In this document: positions 2,591 to 7,965 of the stretch, piece by piece
Layout: each line of letters begins with the position of its first letter
Position numbering within the stretch: the first letter of the stretch is position 1
Assembly (NCBI GenBank): GCA_900320505.1
Contig: ONSL01000001.1
Coordinates: 1 to 57,726 of the forward strand
Origin: an uncultured Eubacteriales bacterium
Lineage (GTDB): Bacteria > Bacillota_I > Bacilli_A > RF39 > UBA660
Reading direction: 5' to 3'
DNA: 57,726 nt
Notes under the pieces: model-generated
Seen by the model: the letters and a program-made list of their open reading frames with translations, nothing else
Told to the model about the DNA's origin: nothing
Databases searched by the model: none
Position numbers and translations under genes: made by a program

Positions 2591-3358
2591 ATGAACGAAT
2601 TAAACAAACTAATAAGTGAACTAGGAATATCAAAAGTAAGTCTTGCTAAATATTTAGGTGTATCAAGACAAATGCTTTATAACTATCTAGGATTTGATAG
2701 TATAGAAAAGTGGCCAGATGAGAAGAAAAACAAACTTTATAATTTATTTAGTGTTAAAAGTGAAGCTGAACTTAAGAATTTAAATTTAGACAATAATATT
2801 GTTAAATCAGTTAATTCTAAACTTGAAAATGCTGCAAAGGCAAGTACTAAAGATGAAATAATTACTGATTTAAAAAACTTTAATAGAAAAGAGCAGGGGA
2901 TATTATCTGATATCATAAATCTATTAAAAGAAAAGATGGAGAAAAATAGTTCTAAAGAAACATATAATACGTATACTTATTTATATCATTTCTTACAATC
3001 AATGGATGCAAATCCAGAACTTAAATATTTTATGGTATATGCATCAAAATCTTTAGGATTTACTGATCCAGATAAATATGATTTTAATGAGAATAAACAA
3101 TTTATTTTTGAATCAATTATGTATAGTGCTTTTACAATTTATAAAAGTGGCGATTTATCAAGATCAAAAATTAAAGCTAGACATGATTCATTTGTACAAG
3201 AAATTTCAAATAAACAAGAAGAAAAACTTGGTAGAACTTTGGAATTGAATATGAATACATTAGAAGCATTAAAAGAACTTGGTTATTCAGAAATAACTGC
3301 AGAGAATGCTAAAGAAGTATTAGAAAAAATAGCAGAAATAGAAAGTAGGAAGGTATAG
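2591..3358 (+). CDS. XRE-type helix-turn-helix DNA-binding protein with a ~190-aa uncharacterised C-terminal domain
   Basis: The HTH ISKVSLAKYLGVSRQMLYNYL lies at the N-terminus. A GGAGGG RBS sits ~8 nt before the ATG at 2591. The track start at 2540 is the TTG of the promoter -35, so it is probably not used. Confidence 0.75.
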   Translation: MNELNKLISELGISKVSLAKYLGVSRQMLYNYLGFDSIEKWPDEKKNKLYNLFSVKSEAELKNLNLDNNIVKSVNSKLENAAKASTKDEIITDLKNFNRKEQGILSDIINLLKEKMEKNSSKETYNTYTYLYHFLQSMDANPELKYFMVYASKSLGFTDPDKYDFNENKQFIFESIMYSAFTIYKSGDLSRSKIKARHDSFVQEISNKQEEKLGRTLELNMNTLEALKELGYSEITAENAKEVLEKIAEIESRKV

Positions 3359-3452
3359 TTTATCTTCTTCTTTCTTTAATTTTATAAAGAAGTTAACATA
3401 ATATCAATTATAGGAAATTCCATATTAGCTTGTTTTTTATAATAAATATACT

Positions 3453-3490
3453 GTAATACATATTAACATATGTATTATTTTTATTTTAAA
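3453..3490 (+). terminator. putative intrinsic terminator after the HTH gene
   Basis: Perfect inverted repeat AATACATAT-taac-ATATGTATT (3455-3476) followed by ATTTTTATTTT. The stem is AT-rich, so stability is modest. Confidence 0.4.
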
Positions 3491-3643
3491 TAAGTATTAT
3501 CTCTTTAATGCTACTTCTATATATAATATATATTATTAATACTGAAATTAAAATAATTATTATATTGTATCTTAAATTTAAATTCAAATTAGATTATTAT
3601 TATAAATATTTTTAAGTATTAAAATTAAAAATTGATTTAGATT

Positions 3644-3850
3644 AATAATTATCCATATTTTATTATTTCGATGCAAATTTTAAATATGCACTAATATGAA
3701 TAACTATCCACTTATTTATTATTCGTCGCAAATTTCATAATTTAAATTTTCATTTAACTTAATAACTATCTATCTTTTTAAAACTGAATGCAAATTTTAA
3801 AATGCAATAAATGAATAATTATCCATATTTTATTATTTCGATGCAAAATT
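3644..3850. repeat. four phased ~36-40-bp direct repeats (iteron-like) in a non-coding AT-rich region
   Basis: Copies start near 3644, 3699, 3761 and 3814, giving spacings of 55, 62 and 53 bp. Copies 1 and 4 are identical over 34 nt (AATAATTATCCATATTTTATTATTTCGATGCAAA). Copies 2 and 3 are diverged (AATAACTATCCACTTATTTATTATTCGTCGCAAATTT and AATAACTATCTATCTTTTTAAAACTGAATGCAAATTT). Confidence 0.85.
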
Positions 3851-3912
3851 TAATGTATAAAATATTGAATACAGAAAATAATATTAGTGTAAGAAAGGAA
3901 TGATAATTTTAT

Positions 3913-4092
3913 ATGAGTAAAAGCAAGAATTGTAAAAATTACAAAAATTCTAAAGAGGGGACTTGTATCAAAAAAAATAATGCATCAAAGAATGCATCAT
4001 CTAAAAATACAAAAACAAGTTCAAGCGAAAATTTAGAAGATAGCAAGACAAGTAGTAGCAAAAGCTGTAAATCATCTAAAAATTGCAAATAA
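3913..4092 (+). CDS. unannotated small Lys/Ser/Asn/Cys-rich protein (59 aa)
   Basis: ATG at 3913 to TAA at 4090-4092 gives MSKSKNCKNYKNSKEGTCIKKNNASKNASSKNTKTSSSENLEDSKTSSSKSCKSSKNCK. An AAAGGAA element lies ~13 nt upstream and a hairpin plus T8 terminator follows immediately. It is below the length cutoff of the ORF track. Confidence 0.45.
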   Translation: MSKSKNCKNYKNSKEGTCIKKNNASKNASSKNTKTSSSENLEDSKTSSSKSCKSSKNCK

Positions 4093-4101
4093 ATAATGAA
4101 A

Positions 4102-4128
4102 ATAGAGAAATTAATCTCTATTTTTTTT
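4102..4128 (+). terminator. intrinsic terminator, probably bidirectional (small ORF on plus, deoB on minus)
   Basis: ATAGAG-aaattaat-CTCTAT followed by an 8-T run (4121-4128). It lies between the convergent stops at 4092 and 4143. Confidence 0.5.
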
Positions 4129-4142
4129 GCTTTTCCCCTTCT

Positions 4143-5300
4143 CTACTCTAATTCTCCTAAAATTGATGTACCTATTTCAGGCTTTTCAATATCAAAATTA
4201 TCTGCGATAGTTGCAGCAACATCAGCCATACTATTTCTTGGAGCAAGACGTTTTGAATTCATGAATTTTCTACTATATAAAAGTACCGGAACATTTTCTC
4301 TTGTATGTGAATTTCCACTAAATGTTGGATCATTTCCATGGTCTGCTGTAATGATTAATAAATCATCTGTATCAAGTTTATTTAATATGATAGGTACATT
4401 TACATCAAACTCTTCTAAAACTTTCTTATAGCCGTCTACGTCTCGCCTGTGACCACATGTATCAAAGTCAGGAAGTGTTGCAATACAAAGTCCATTAAAG
4501 TTTTTATCCATTACATCGGTTAATTTATTAATAACCTCGTTATTATCTGATGCAGTAAGAGCTTTATTTATGCCCTCCCTATCAAATATATCATTTATTT
4601 TACCTATTCCAATAACATTATACCCTTTATCAAGTAATTCAGTTAAAATAGTCGTTTCTGGAGGTTTTACAGCATAATCTCTTCTGCCACTATTAAGTGG
4701 TTTATAAGCACCACTTTTACCAGTAAATGGTCTTGCAATTATTCTTCCAACTCTATATTGTTCGTTTAAAGTTATTCTTCTAATTTCTTCACAATATTTA
4801 TGTAGCATAGAAACTGGTATTACATCTTCATGAGCAGCTACTTGCAGATCAGAGTCTTCAGATGTATATATTATTAATGCACCATAATTTAATGCTTTGT
4901 CACCAAGTTCATTTATTATCTCTTCTGATGAAGAACATTTATTACCAATTATTCTTCTTCCAGTTATTTCACTTATATATGTAAGTATTTCCATAGGAAA
5001 GCCTTCATTAAATGTTTTAAATGGGACATTAGATTTTATTCCCATAAGTTCGTAGTGTCCATTTAATGAATCTATTCCAGCATTATTTGGTTTTGCAGTT
5101 GTATAATAAGCATCGACATCTTCTTCTTTCATACTTACTGTACTTAAAAGACCAATTTTCTTTAGGTTAGGGATAAATATATCTTCACTTTCAACATGTC
5201 CTAAAGTTGATGCTCCTTTAGATCCATATGTACTTGCATCTTCTGCTTCCCCTACTCCTACTGAATCCATTATTAGCAAAAAAATTCTTTTAAATTTCAT
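4143..5300 (-). CDS. deoB: phosphopentomutase
   Basis: N-terminal LIMDSVGVGE metal site and the ITADHGNDPT motif. Length 385 aa. Confidence 0.93.
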   Translation of the reverse strand: MKFKRIFLLIMDSVGVGEAEDASTYGSKGASTLGHVESEDIFIPNLKKIGLLSTVSMKEEDVDAYYTTAKPNNAGIDSLNGHYELMGIKSNVPFKTFNEGFPMEILTYISEITGRRIIGNKCSSSEEIINELGDKALNYGALIIYTSEDSDLQVAAHEDVIPVSMLHKYCEEIRRITLNEQYRVGRIIARPFTGKSGAYKPLNSGRRDYAVKPPETTILTELLDKGYNVIGIGKINDIFDREGINKALTASDNNEVINKLTDVMDKNFNGLCIATLPDFDTCGHRRDVDGYKKVLEEFDVNVPIILNKLDTDDLLIITADHGNDPTFSGNSHTRENVPVLLYSRKFMNSKRLAPRNSMADVAATIADNFDIEKPEIGTSILGELE

Positions 5301-5312
5301 AAATTATAACCT

Positions 5313-6221
5313 CTATTTCTTATCACGTGGATGATACTCTTCATAGTCATTTTCTACTGCTTTATCACTTACGTGTGTATATATTTTAGTAGTTGATATT
5401 GATTCATGTCCAAGCATTTCCTGTATACTTCTTAAATCAGCACCTCTATCTAAAAGATGTGTTGCAAAAGAGTGCCTCAATGTATGTGGTGAAACATTTG
5501 TATCAAGACCTTTTTCTTCTAAAAGTCCTTTAAGAATTTTAAAGAATCCTTGTCTTGTTATTTTCTTTCCATGATTATTTAAAAAAAGTGCTTCAGTATC
5601 AACACCTCTTTTTGTAAGAAGTGGTCTATTTTCCATATATAGTTCAAGATAATGCATTGAATATTCTCCAATAGGTATTATTCTTTCTTTATTTCCTTTT
5701 CCAACTATTCTTATTATTGAATTTGTAAAATCAATATTATTAAGTGTTAAATTAACAAGTTCTGATACCCTAAGCCCTGTTCCATACATTACTTCAAGCA
5801 TTGCTTTATTTCTATAATCATATGGTGTTTTAAGTTTAATATCAAGAAGCTTATCTACATCTTCAACAGATAATACTCTAGGTATACTTTTAACAATTTT
5901 AGGTCTCTTTATAGATATGCTTACGTCTTCTTTTACAATACCCTCTCTTTTTAAATAAGAATGAAATTCTTTTATTGAAGTAAGAGTATGTGCAATTGTT
6001 TTAACAGAATCTCCTTTATTTGTTATTTCTTTTAAATAATCATTTATATCCTCTACTTTAATATTTTTAAAATCTGTAATTTTTTTTCTATCTAAATATT
6101 TAAGATACAATTTTAAATCATTTCTATATGAATCTATAGTATTTTGAGAAAGTCCTTTATCAATAGAACAATAAGATAAAAAATCAATTAAATATTCATT
6201 ATCATTAGTCAAAAAAACCAC
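5313..6221 (-). CDS. xerD: site-specific tyrosine recombinase XerD-type
   Basis: Catalytic motifs GLRVSEL, HTLRHSFATHLL and LGHESISTTKIYTHV. The xerD-deoB adjacency resembles B. subtilis ripX-drm. Confidence 0.8.
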   Translation of the reverse strand: MVFLTNDNEYLIDFLSYCSIDKGLSQNTIDSYRNDLKLYLKYLDRKKITDFKNIKVEDINDYLKEITNKGDSVKTIAHTLTSIKEFHSYLKREGIVKEDVSISIKRPKIVKSIPRVLSVEDVDKLLDIKLKTPYDYRNKAMLEVMYGTGLRVSELVNLTLNNIDFTNSIIRIVGKGNKERIIPIGEYSMHYLELYMENRPLLTKRGVDTEALFLNNHGKKITRQGFFKILKGLLEEKGLDTNVSPHTLRHSFATHLLDRGADLRSIQEMLGHESISTTKIYTHVSDKAVENDYEEYHPRDKK

Positions 6222-6286
6222 CTATATAATTATATTATAATATTCTAAATTAATCAAATATGATAAAATATATATTGGTGATAGTT

Positions 6287-6748
6287 ATGACTAGAAGTTA
6301 TGGAATAATTATTTATAGAGCATTTGAAGGTAAAACTGAAGTTCTGCTTTGCCATCCTGGAGGTCCATACTGGAAATGTAAGAAAAACTTTACTGTTTCT
6401 AAAGGGGAAAGAACAGGTTATGAAAAAGCTATTGATACTGCAAAACGTGAATTTAAAGAAGAAACATCATTTAATGCACCTAGTAATATTCATTATTTAG
6501 GAACTAAAAAAGTAAATAAGAAAAAACTTGTAACCATATTTTATGCTAATATGGATATTGATGTAGAAAAGTGCCATAGTAATACATTTAAACTTGAGTC
6601 TCCAAAAGGTTCAGGAATAATTAAAGAATATCCTGAAATGGATTATTATAAATGGTTTAGTCTTGATGATGCAAGAAAAGTTATAATGAAAAGTCAAATA
6701 TATTTTATTAATAAATTAGAAGATAAGTTAAAGGAGATGAAAGCATGA
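6287..6748 (+). CDS. NUDIX-family hydrolase (predicted)
   Basis: Nudix-box-like GERTGYEKAIDTAKREFKEETSF. The probable start is the ATG at 6287 (GGTGA RBS) rather than the track start at 6260. The stop overlaps the rarA start as ATGA. Confidence 0.65.
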   Translation: MTRSYGIIIYRAFEGKTEVLLCHPGGPYWKCKKNFTVSKGERTGYEKAIDTAKREFKEETSFNAPSNIHYLGTKKVNKKKLVTIFYANMDIDVEKCHSNTFKLESPKGSGIIKEYPEMDYYKWFSLDDARKVIMKSQIYFINKLEDKLKEMKA

Positions 6749-7965
6749 TAATACCCCTAGCTAAAAGAATGGAGCCTAAAACTTTAAAGGATGTTTTAGG
6801 ACAAGATGAGCTTACTGGCAAAGGAAAAGTTCTTCAAAATATGGTTAAATTTAAACATCCATTTTCATTCATTTTAACTGGTCCTCCAGGAATTGGAAAA
6901 ACATCAATTGCAATTGCACTTTCAAACGATTTAGGTATGAGATGTAAAGTTATCAATGCAACAGATAGCAGTAAGAAAGACCTAGATATTGCAAGAGAAG
7001 AAGCTAAAATGTATGATGGTATGATATTAATAATTGATGAAATTCATAGGCTTAATAAAGATAAGCAAGATATATTATTGCCTATGATTGAAAGTGGTCT
7101 TATTGTTCTAATAGGAATGACAACAGAAAACCCATATCATTCAATTAATCCTGCTATTAGAAGTAGATGTGAAATATTTGAGCTTAAGTCTCTTGAAAAG
7201 GATGATATTATAAAAGGACTTAAAAAAGCAGTAAAAAAGGAGCTTACGGATATTAAAATAGATAATAAATCACTTGATTTAATTGCAACTATTTCTGGAA
7301 ATGATTTGAGATCTGCATATAACTTGCTTGATATTTGTTATATGCAAAATGAAGATCATAAAGTTGATATTGATACTGTAAAAATAGTTAACAATAAGCC
7401 TGTTTTCTTTGCAGATAAAAATGGTGCTGGTCATTATAATGTAATGAGTGCTCTTCAAAAATCTATAAGAGGATCTGATGTAGATGCTGCGCTTCATTAT
7501 ACTGCAAGGCTTCTTGCCGAAGGGGACTTAAAAACGTTAGAGAGAAGATTATCAGTTATTGCATATGAAGATATTGGTATGGCAAATCCAGATATTGGTG
7601 TAAGACTTGATGCCGCAATAAATGCTGCAGAACGTGTTGGACTTCCAGAAGCAATAATTCCATTTGGCGAAATAGTTTGTGAAATGGCTCTTTCTCCAAA
7701 GAGTAATTCTTCATATCTTGCAATAAATGCTGCAATAGATGATATAAATAAAGGAAATGTTGGAGAAATACCACATCATATTGTTAAAGGATCTCCTGAC
7801 TATAAATATCCTCATGATTACCCTAATGATTATGTATATCAGGAATATCTGCCTAAAAAATTAAAAAATGTTAAATATTATCATCCTAAAGCTAACGGAT
7901 ATGAAATTAATTATAAAGAAGTTTATGATAAGTTAGAAAAAATAAAAGAAAGTCATTTGAAATAG
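6745..7965 (+). CDS. rarA: replication-associated recombination protein A (MgsA/RarA AAA+ ATPase)
   Basis: Walker A GPPGIGKTS, Walker B LIIDEIHR, and C-terminal MgsA-type HYNVMSALQKSIRGSD. Confidence 0.9.
   Translation: MIIPLAKRMEPKTLKDVLGQDELTGKGKVLQNMVKFKHPFSFILTGPPGIGKTSIAIALSNDLGMRCKVINATDSSKKDLDIAREEAKMYDGMILIIDEIHRLNKDKQDILLPMIESGLIVLIGMTTENPYHSINPAIRSRCEIFELKSLEKDDIIKGLKKAVKKELTDIKIDNKSLDLIATISGNDLRSAYNLLDICYMQNEDHKVDIDTVKIVNNKPVFFADKNGAGHYNVMSALQKSIRGSDVDAALHYTARLLAEGDLKTLERRLSVIAYEDIGMANPDIGVRLDAAINAAERVGLPEAIIPFGEIVCEMALSPKSNSSYLAINAAIDDINKGNVGEIPHHIVKGSPDYKYPHDYPNDYVYQEYLPKKLKNVKYYHPKANGYEINYKEVYDKLEKIKESHLK

Follow-up and report, generated by a model that had tools for sequence, protein, structure and literature searches.

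A two-block module repeated four times beside dif in an uncultured low-GC bacterium, and its candidate role as a protein-binding array of the replication terminus

What is an array of four phased direct repeats for, when it lies in a long AT-rich gap and no annotated feature explains it? The question is raised by contig ONSL01000001.1 of assembly GCA_900320505.1, from an uncultured Eubacteriales bacterium, the whole of which (57.7 kb; 57,726 nucleotides) was analysed and is called the window below. The source is a fragmented metagenome-assembled genome (MAG) of 88 contigs with 27% G+C. An original prediction, made by a model from the sequence alone, had described an iteron-like array with a DnaA-box-like core, and had offered as possible roles an operator or activator array for a neighbouring small open reading frame (ORF), a cluster of boxes that titrates DnaA, or protein-binding sites linked to replication termination. 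The repeats belong to a conserved two-block module that is found close to the chromosomal dif site in many related genomes. Our preferred reading, to which we give about an even chance of being right, is that the array would be a position-specific, orientation-independent protein-binding module of the terminus region, expanded in the window to four phased copies.

Four units at the replication terminus

A repeat search recovered one repeat family between 3622 and 3853, with 66-85% identity across 62 nt and four copies on the same strand, although a short-read MAG may under-assemble a 55-nt tandem repeat in which two units are nearly identical, and so give too low a copy number. The units start at 3640, 3695, 3757 and 3810, giving start-to-start distances of 55, 62 and 53 bp. 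The four phased direct repeats of the original prediction are therefore real, as is the identity over 34 nt that it had seen between copies 1 and 4: the longest exact repeat in 300 first-order Markov resamples of 3359-3912 was at most 17 nt, with a mean of 11.8 nt. The features needed here are listed below, with scores from a position weight matrix (PWM) and from a sequence-only Infernal model of the unit (R1).

3391..3418, minus strand: chromosomal dif, consisting of XerC arm ATTTCCTATAA, spacer TTGATA and XerD arm TTATGTTAACT; the XerC arm is toward the array
3419..3639, no strand: AT-rich spacer from dif to the array, 11.6% G+C
3640..3685, plus strand: unit 1; block A 3642-3656, block B TCGATGCAAAT 3668-3678; PWM 47 bits, R1 39.5 bits (E=6.5e-10)
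3695..3740, plus strand: unit 2, diverged; block A 3697-3711, block B TCGTCGCAAAT 3723-3733; PWM 42 bits, R1 32.8 bits
3757..3802, plus strand: unit 3, diverged; block A 3759-3773, block B TGAATGCAAAT 3785-3795; PWM 38 bits, R1 30.4 bits
3810..3855, plus strand: unit 4, abutting the small-ORF promoter; block A 3812-3826, block B TCGATGCAAAA 3838-3848; PWM 47 bits, R1 39.3 bits

The array lies in a gap of 784 nt (3359-4142, from the stop of a helix-turn-helix (HTH) protein gene at 3358 to the end of deoB at 4143) with 18% G+C, the longest in the window between ORFs of at least 110 aa. Both the gene-free gap and the AT-rich stretch upstream of the array had been correctly described, the latter (3490-3640) having 10.6% G+C, and the array stops 62 nt before the ATG of the small ORF (3913). 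Flanking genes in the window are mnmA, the HTH gene, deoB and xerD.

Comparison of the gap with relatives by BLAST brought out a 33-nt stretch just past the HTH gene that is 94-97% identical across genera. The site at 3391-3418 has 28 bp in an 11-6-11 arrangement and is identical with the dif of Bacillus subtilis (PMC3025954) at 23 of the 28 positions. It is unique in the assembly, where the runner-up has 5 mismatches, and GC skew and gene orientation converge on it. A xerD-like gene (5313-6221) lies 2 kb away, a XerC paralogue is encoded on contig C31, and FtsK, on C38, has a C-terminus that was judged by eye to be gamma-domain-like. Judged by its sequence, 3391-3418 is the canonical chromosomal XerCD dif at the replication terminus. 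The array begins 221 bp from it, on the XerC-arm side, and thus sits at the replication terminus.

Three further observations concern the surroundings of dif. A palindrome at 2531-2558 (GTTTACA-N12-TGTAAAC), whose half-sites resemble the XerD arm, lies over the -35 element of the HTH-gene promoter and is kept only within the genus; as a promoter-overlapping inverted repeat with genus-only conservation it was rejected as dif, the true site being 3391-3418. Two genomes of the genus carry insertions exactly at dif that resemble an IMEX, a mobile element that exploits Xer for its integration. The one in G005 (L028, ~4756-7569) encodes a Rep_OBD/RepB_C replication protein and a Zot-like ATPase, and the one in G006 (L025, 4235-4690) a REP_ORF2-G2P protein that overlaps the dif site.

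A two-block module conserved beside dif

The anatomy of the unit was taken from a lineage-weighted profile of 44 distinct unit copies from 11 lineage groups. Block A is TGAATAATTATnCAT, a 16-bp palindrome ATGAATAA·TTATTCAT with the right half TTATyCAT, and its central AATTAT is 86-99% conserved. A semi-conserved, T-rich linker of 11 nt follows, and then block B, an asymmetric 13-bp box, tTCGATGCAAAwT (profile tTCGATGCAAAwTA), that is 74-99% conserved and has the core TCGATGCAAAT. The distance from A to B is fixed, with no insertion or deletion between the blocks in any of the copies. Units are 46-56 bp long and carry TTCGATGCAAA. The repeated element is therefore longer than the 36-40 bp first assigned to it, since block A, linker and block B all belong to it. 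The 9-mers that had been picked out as DnaA-box-like, TTATCCATA (twice), CTATCCACT and CTATCTATC, are all present in the array, and correspond to the right half of the block A palindrome.

Blocks A and B keep their 74-99% conservation over lineage groups whose HTH proteins share only ~47-60% identity, whereas the linker and flanks vary. Conservation of the module across hosts with ~50% identical proteins indicates long vertical descent under selection rather than recent transfer. Many lineages also have a second, inverted block B against the other side of block A (TTTGCATCGAGAT…ATCTCGATGCAAA), and where block B has turned to TCGATTTAAAT both inverted arms are altered together. The spacings between units fall into two clusters, at ~54 and ~63 bp, with larger values rarer. 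These two clusters lie one helical turn apart, so that bound proteins would share roughly the same face of the DNA.

The palindromic form of block A, and a block B far longer than a -35 hexamer, are signs of recognition as duplex DNA. A reading of the unit as a structured RNA or hairpin finds support in a subset of units only, and there is no Rfam match: the folding energy lies at z < -2 relative to shuffles in 9 of 29 units (mean z -1.5), and beats shuffles only in units with both arms intact. The units of L187, L222 and L225 fold at z -5 to -7, with arms that change together, whilst the window units and most internal array units are near 0. An Rfam scan of 3200-4300 returned chance-level matches only and no family. 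In L146 (2975-3290) at least six near-identical units of 55 nt stand in a row, pointing to recent amplification or concerted evolution; in the window only units 1 and 4 are alike.

Further copies were sought in ~185,000 species genomes and in the JGI and ENA metagenomes by scanning for two-copy patterns and then scoring with the PWM, which brought the element to light in many additional lineages, and the R1 model was run on 401 genomes of the family. With a PWM built from 12 orthologous copies, the window units score 38-47 bits and the runner-up site in the 1.2-Mb assembly scores 15 bits; thus the array is unique in its own genome and not a dispersed element. A genome-wide intergenic repeat indifferent to position, which had been named as the finding that would overturn the original prediction, is not what was found: own genome and genus have a single module locus, and it is linked to dif. 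The two closest species (rumen MAGs RUG530 and RUG793) have four copies in the same place. R1 matches 117 of the 401 genomes at E<=0.01 and about 30 at E<=1e-5. A dif-like site lies within a few hundred nt in 29 of the 30 best family loci, the exception being a short contig, and the weak matches in G013, G017 and G022 are likewise just past the HTH gene. The carriers belong to a large family of uncultured Bacilli of gut and rumen that have a low GC content and a sporulation sigma-factor set.

Geometry was compared over 41 loci. Between unit and dif lie 89-340 nt, with a median of 204 nt; for a random site in a 1.2-Mb genome the chance of lying less than 400 nt from dif is ~7e-4 per locus. In 29 loci the units are on the side of the XerC arm, in 12 on that of the XerD arm, and all four combinations of side and strand are seen (20, 9, 7 and 5 loci). 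One copy is present in 20 loci, two in 7, three in 5, four in 6 and five in 3, and L146 has at least six. As the usual state is a single unit, the window array is an expansion. Carriers are scattered over every clade of the HTH tree, and the module's distribution suggests an old element with many losses. Beside dif in relatives that have no array, neither relics nor other repeat arrays were found. In G011 (L033), which is classed as unit-less, block-A-like palindromes (ATGAATAACTGTCCATC and ATGAATAACTATTCGAA, at 3306 and 3521) lie at most 270 nt from dif with no recognisable block B, and these may be a diverged form of the module.

A second location was found near the origin. The complete genome G348 (1.257 Mb) has a five-unit array and dif at 426.5 kb, 619 kb from dnaA or 49% of the chromosome, and an extra unit of 36 bits at 1,037.07 kb, in the spacer between dnaX and tadA, next to gyrA and 8.7 kb from dnaA. 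Around this origin-side unit are four perfect parS sites and a DnaA box of consensus sequence. In G274, of another genus, the gyrA-tadA spacer ~9 kb from dnaA holds modules in which ATTTCCCGGGAAAT, then TTATCCACA, then parS are each followed by a unit-like element; ATTTCCCGGGAAAT is a binding site of Noc (e.g. PMC7383237). Such composite modules number three to four per spacer (L215, G274 contig C32, ~180.0-181.5 kb; L211, G348, ~1,036.9-1,037.7 kb), and in them the DnaA box directly abuts the Noc site. In these two genera, one of them represented by a weak match, the origin-side units keep company with known chromosome-organisation sites.

Candidate functions of the module

From the placement and conservation of the module we infer protein binding, a candidate binder and a function. 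In the reading that we prefer, a sequence-specific dimer or oligomer would bind the units cooperatively, and a nucleoprotein complex would form ~200 bp away from dif, with highly AT-rich, bendable DNA in between. This complex would work regardless of orientation, marking or organising the terminus; alternatively, it would modulate events at dif, such as Xer recombination or the end of chromosome translocation. In this genus it may in addition, and secondarily, affect the forespore-type promoter that abuts unit 4. Of the roles first proposed, that of protein sites linked to the terminus has thus kept its location, given the distance to dif in the window and the linkage of unit and dif in every locus examined, while a Ter-like barrier is unlikely, the module having no fixed polarity.

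The obvious candidate binder is the protein encoded just before dif:

2591..3358, plus strand: XRE-type HTH protein gene, 255 aa, with a weak Pfam HTH_3 match (scan at E<=0.01)

The protein has no NCBIfam match and no Foldseek match in the PDB below E=0.8, and none of its ~5,462 homologues is characterised. Its AlphaFold2 model (pLDDT 77) is all-helical, and the long predicted helices could mediate oligomerisation; like the invariant recognition helix and the single-copy gene, they count in favour of its candidacy. The gene is single-copy in 27 of 41 relatives, including all but one of the family members sampled, and its own promoter carries a palindrome different from block A. It is the neighbour of dif, pointing either way, in 18 of 20 family loci, and the gene across dif varies. 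This linkage resembles the gene-site linkages of xerS with difSL and of rtp with Ter. XafT of TLCphi, an XRE HTH fused to DUF3653 that is encoded beside dif, activates XerD (PMC6744903); it is a conceptual precedent for a dif-linked HTH gene. The Pfam scan of the window protein gave the weak HTH_3 match only. Two paralogous genes (177-761 and 764-1279) were rejected as source of the binder, being confined to G000 and G002 and missing from distant array carriers. They replace the membrane-protein gene that precedes mnmA elsewhere, and a third copy is on C48 of G000.

Several observations weigh against a dedicated terminus-binding module. Each unit can also be read on the minus strand as TTGCAT-N17-nATAAT, so RNA polymerase could be the 'binder', and the HTH protein remains a candidate. 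Its recognition helix is invariant while block B shifts from TGCAAA to TTTAAA or TTCAAA. At least 70% of the family genomes have no match, so the module is dispensable, and most genomes with the HTH gene have neither the module nor isolated A or B blocks near dif, G011 excepted. The phasing of the units (Rayleigh test, p = 4e-4 for a period of 10.0 bp and p = 0.016 for one of 10.5 bp) rests on spacings that are partly non-independent and clustered partly by common descent. Finally, origin-side units occur in two genera only, one of them with a match of just 19 bits.

A bolder version of the preferred reading, which we hold only tentatively and consider a good deal less probable, is that the module would be the cis half of an undescribed landmark-marking system. 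A dedicated binder, possibly the XRE-HTH protein, would act at dif and, in some genera, at the origin-proximal hub with its parS, Noc and DnaA sites too, and in a complex indifferent to orientation would couple the terminus to division or to forespore translocation, with the small forespore genes as a timing read-out. The complex might then gate Xer recombination or signal that the last DNA has been pumped in.

The strongest competitor, possible but rather improbable in our judgement, is that the units are operators or upstream regulatory sites of the adjacent small gene, which would be of sporulation type, and that the proximity of dif is incidental. The relevant features in the window are:

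3855..3883, plus strand: promoter of the small ORF, forespore-type (sigmaF/sigmaG-like); GTATA (3855-3859), N17, AATAATA (3877-3883)
3913..4092, plus strand: small ORF, 59 aa, Lys/Ser/Asn/Cys-rich, followed by a hairpin and a T8 run

We take this promoter to fit the consensus of forespore sigmaF/G. A G[TA]ATA-N17/18-CATAATA element precedes orthologous or positionally equivalent DUF1540 and K/S-rich ORFs in at least 10 species, with or without units. The small ORF has orthologues in G002 and G007, and in G010 and G004 a DUF1540 (PF07561) gene holds the same place. The genome of the window encodes SigE-, SigG-, SigK- and SigF-like sigma factors (C76, C77, C84 and C29). With such a promoter and these sigma factors encoded, the small ORF is probably a sporulation gene, and, lying at dif, a forespore gene would enter the forespore after all other DNA. 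The small genes next to dif that share the promoter encode DUF1540 proteins, K/S-rich proteins, a Gly/Tyr-rich membrane peptide and K/S/N-rich proteins, and were seen at 3855-4092 of the window and in L023, L024, L026-L028, L184, L187, L189, L199-L201, L125 and L146.

That the units regulate this gene is suggested by the window and two sister species, where the array ends 4-8 nt (6 nt in the window) before the GTATA-N17-(C/A/G)ATAATA of a K/S-rich ORF, and by the co-occurrence of the array with the K/S-rich ORF variant in genus g1. The presence of sporulation sigma factors in the genome is also in its favour, and in G274, G074, G112, G425, G305 and G426 a DUF1540 ORF begins 50-75 nt (~115 nt in G426) past the block B arm that reads toward it. 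However, about 30 of the 41 loci have no ORF beside the units in either direction, with no loss of conservation in the blocks. A distance of 4-28 nt between unit and -35 element gives no fixed activator geometry, the DUF1540 genes of unit-less species keep their promoter without a unit, and origin-side units have no such ORF. A small ORF starts 50-75 nt past a block B arm in about 10 of the 41 loci; the proposed operator or activator array for the small ORF may thus apply where such a gene is present, and fails as a general account of the module. An influence of the array on the small-ORF promoter may exist as a secondary effect.

Alternatively, each unit might be a minus-strand sigmaA promoter (-35 TTGCAT, 17-nt spacer, -10 nATAAT) that fires leftward to dif and makes a non-coding transcript or small RNA; this we regard as unlikely. 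TTGCAT-N17-(G/T/A)ATAAT is kept in nearly all of the 44 copies with the promoter spacing intact, and the 18-nt spacer of the origin-side copy in G274 would be tolerable to a promoter. The putative promoters aim at dif in 27 of the 41 loci, and L125, L197 and L146 have a sense small ORF beyond dif. The remaining 14 aim away from dif, into the terminator of the neighbouring gene within 20-60 nt, and no consistent downstream gene or RNA and no Rfam match was found. The pattern of conservation also speaks for something other than a promoter. Measured against the -10 conservation that is typical of sigma70 promoters, position -12 is free to vary, with 86-99% conservation from -10 to -8, unlike sigma70 recognition; the '-35' is embedded in the invariant 13-bp box, and the conserved stretch from +1 to +7 (TTCAT) is the partner half of the palindrome. 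The unit was also compared by eye with the consensus sequences of sigma54, sigmaH and sigmaF/G promoters and of the Spo0A box, and none fits.

Doubtful, and a little less probable again, is that the units are accessory sequences for Xer recombination of the cer/psi type, where bound proteins wrap the DNA beside the XerC arm and steer synapsis or directionality. The 89-340 nt between units and dif, and the XerC side in 29 of the 41 loci including the window, would suit such a role. The ARG box is an 18-bp palindrome, TNTGAATWWWWATTCANW, with the core TGAAT-N4-ATTCA, and the block A consensus gATGAATAATTATTCATc fits this core, whilst the copies in the window have ATCCA in the right half where the ARG box has ATTCA. 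ArgR is named as an accessory factor at cer in a preprint (bioRxiv 10.64898/2026.02.23.706985). Neither of the FtsK homologues of B. subtilis seems to drive Xer recombination (PMC1914069), and other cofactors are thus conceivable. On the other side, ArgR (PF02863) is absent from 26 of 26 genomes, including that of the window, with 8 control genomes positive, and it was rejected as the binder of block A despite the fit to the ARG-box core. Units lie on the XerD side in 12 loci, and all four orientation combinations occur, which is hard to square with a defined interwrapped synapse. The genome encodes XerC, XerD and an FtsK whose C-terminus looks by eye like a gamma domain, most family genomes have no units, and origin-side copies would be left unexplained.

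Very unlikely is a remnant of a mobile element, whether iterons or an origin from a plasmid or IMEX, or a palindromic element resembling a miniature inverted-repeat transposable element in the dif spacer. Dif is an integration hotspot in the genus, as the insertions in G005 and G006 demonstrate, the distribution is patchy with variable side and orientation, many lineages have inverted terminal arms on the unit, and iterons beside an AT-rich stretch resemble a theta-type origin. However, the two IMEXs have no unit motif, there is no rep gene nearby, and no match was found among 72,556 plasmids; phages gave spurious matches of 38 nt only, and IMG/VR one chance match. A match in L081 was rejected as evidence of a plasmid or viral origin because its score falls short of the PWM threshold. 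No second, degenerate dif flanking the island came out of arm searches that allowed up to 2 mismatches, each genome has one locus, and the blocks are conserved while the linkers diverge. 'Iteron-like' is apt only as a description of the repeats, there being no rep gene and no similarity to plasmids or phages.

The last two roles, a DnaA-titrating box cluster (datA-like or of the DnaA-box-cluster type) and a polar fork barrier of Ter type, are highly improbable: two of the 9-mers are one mismatch from TTATCCACA, the array is at the terminus and its copies point one way like Ter sites, but 3620-3870 has no exact and two one-mismatch copies of TTATCCACA (16 and 425, respectively, in the genome), canonical box clusters sit on C37 and C85, orthologous copies (TTATATGTC, TTATTCATT, TTATCTATT) lose the CACA end and keep AATTAT with its palindromic partner, and a single cluster per genome in one orientation, with no opposed set and with a polarity to dif that differs among lineages in all four ways, is not the arrangement of Ter sites.

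Related systems and meaning for the family

In its logic, a protein-binding module at the terminus would have its closest analogues in RefZ and its motifs, MatP-matS, the XerD-specific binding sites (XDS) and the Xer accessory sequences, and by this comparison it belongs to none of these families. The RefZ-binding motifs (RBMs) of Bacillus are near-palindromic and conserved in chromosomal position (PMC6657595). The module resembles RBMs and matS in having near-palindromic sites, predicted here to be bound, that are few in number, lie in landmark regions and are conserved taxon-wide in position rather than gene context; as with RBMs, it occurs in a putative spore-former. RBMs, which lie near oriC and on both arms, are single sites of 20 bp with a TetR protein as their binder, whereas the module has two parts and ~46 bp. 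The matS sites, 13-bp palindromes, are scattered through an extensive Ter domain. Unlike either, the module expands in tandem to 5-6 copies and stays within 340 nt of dif.

With cer/ArgR-PepA and psi/ArcA-PepA the module shares its distance of ~100-200 bp to the core Xer site, its predominance on the XerC side, and an ARG-box-like block A whose binding is predicted; it differs in serving a chromosomal dif and not a plasmid site, in the absence of ArgR, in a side and orientation that are not fixed, and in the presence of an FtsK that is gamma-like by eye. XDS are reportedly XerD-specific binding sites in the terminus region of B. subtilis (Karaboja et al. 2021). The likeness lies in extra sites around dif, here with predicted binding, that would give the terminus a role beyond dimer resolution. 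XDS are copies of the XerD half-site of dif, whereas blocks A and B have, by eye, no meaningful similarity to either dif arm. The 43-bp repeats of F sopC and theta iterons are likewise tandem repeats of ~45-60 bp, each with a palindrome, beside very AT-rich DNA; the module differs from them in having no adjacent partition or rep gene and no plasmid or phage homology, a single unit as its commonest state (20 of 41 loci), a chromosomal location and probably vertical inheritance.

Should the units turn out to be merely local operators of a small sporulation gene, the finding would be an ordinary one, and dif would still be correctly placed, with the DnaA and iteron readings rejected as before. 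Outside Escherichia coli (MatP/matS, Tus/Ter) and Bacillus (RTP/Ter, XDS, RefZ/RBM), almost nothing is known of how the terminus is marked and handled; for Firmicutes it is not even clear how Xer recombination at dif is activated. As bait, the unit can serve to fish for its binder, and the complete cis region is only ~500 bp. Natural genomes with no copy, one copy or 4-6 copies provide ready-made comparisons, and dif together with the unit is a practical marker of the terminus in the fragmented MAGs of this family. A conserved, selectable module ~200 bp from dif, shared by dozens of genera among the abundant uncultured bacteria of gut and rumen, is thus a testable handle on how these organisms may mark and organise the end of their chromosome.

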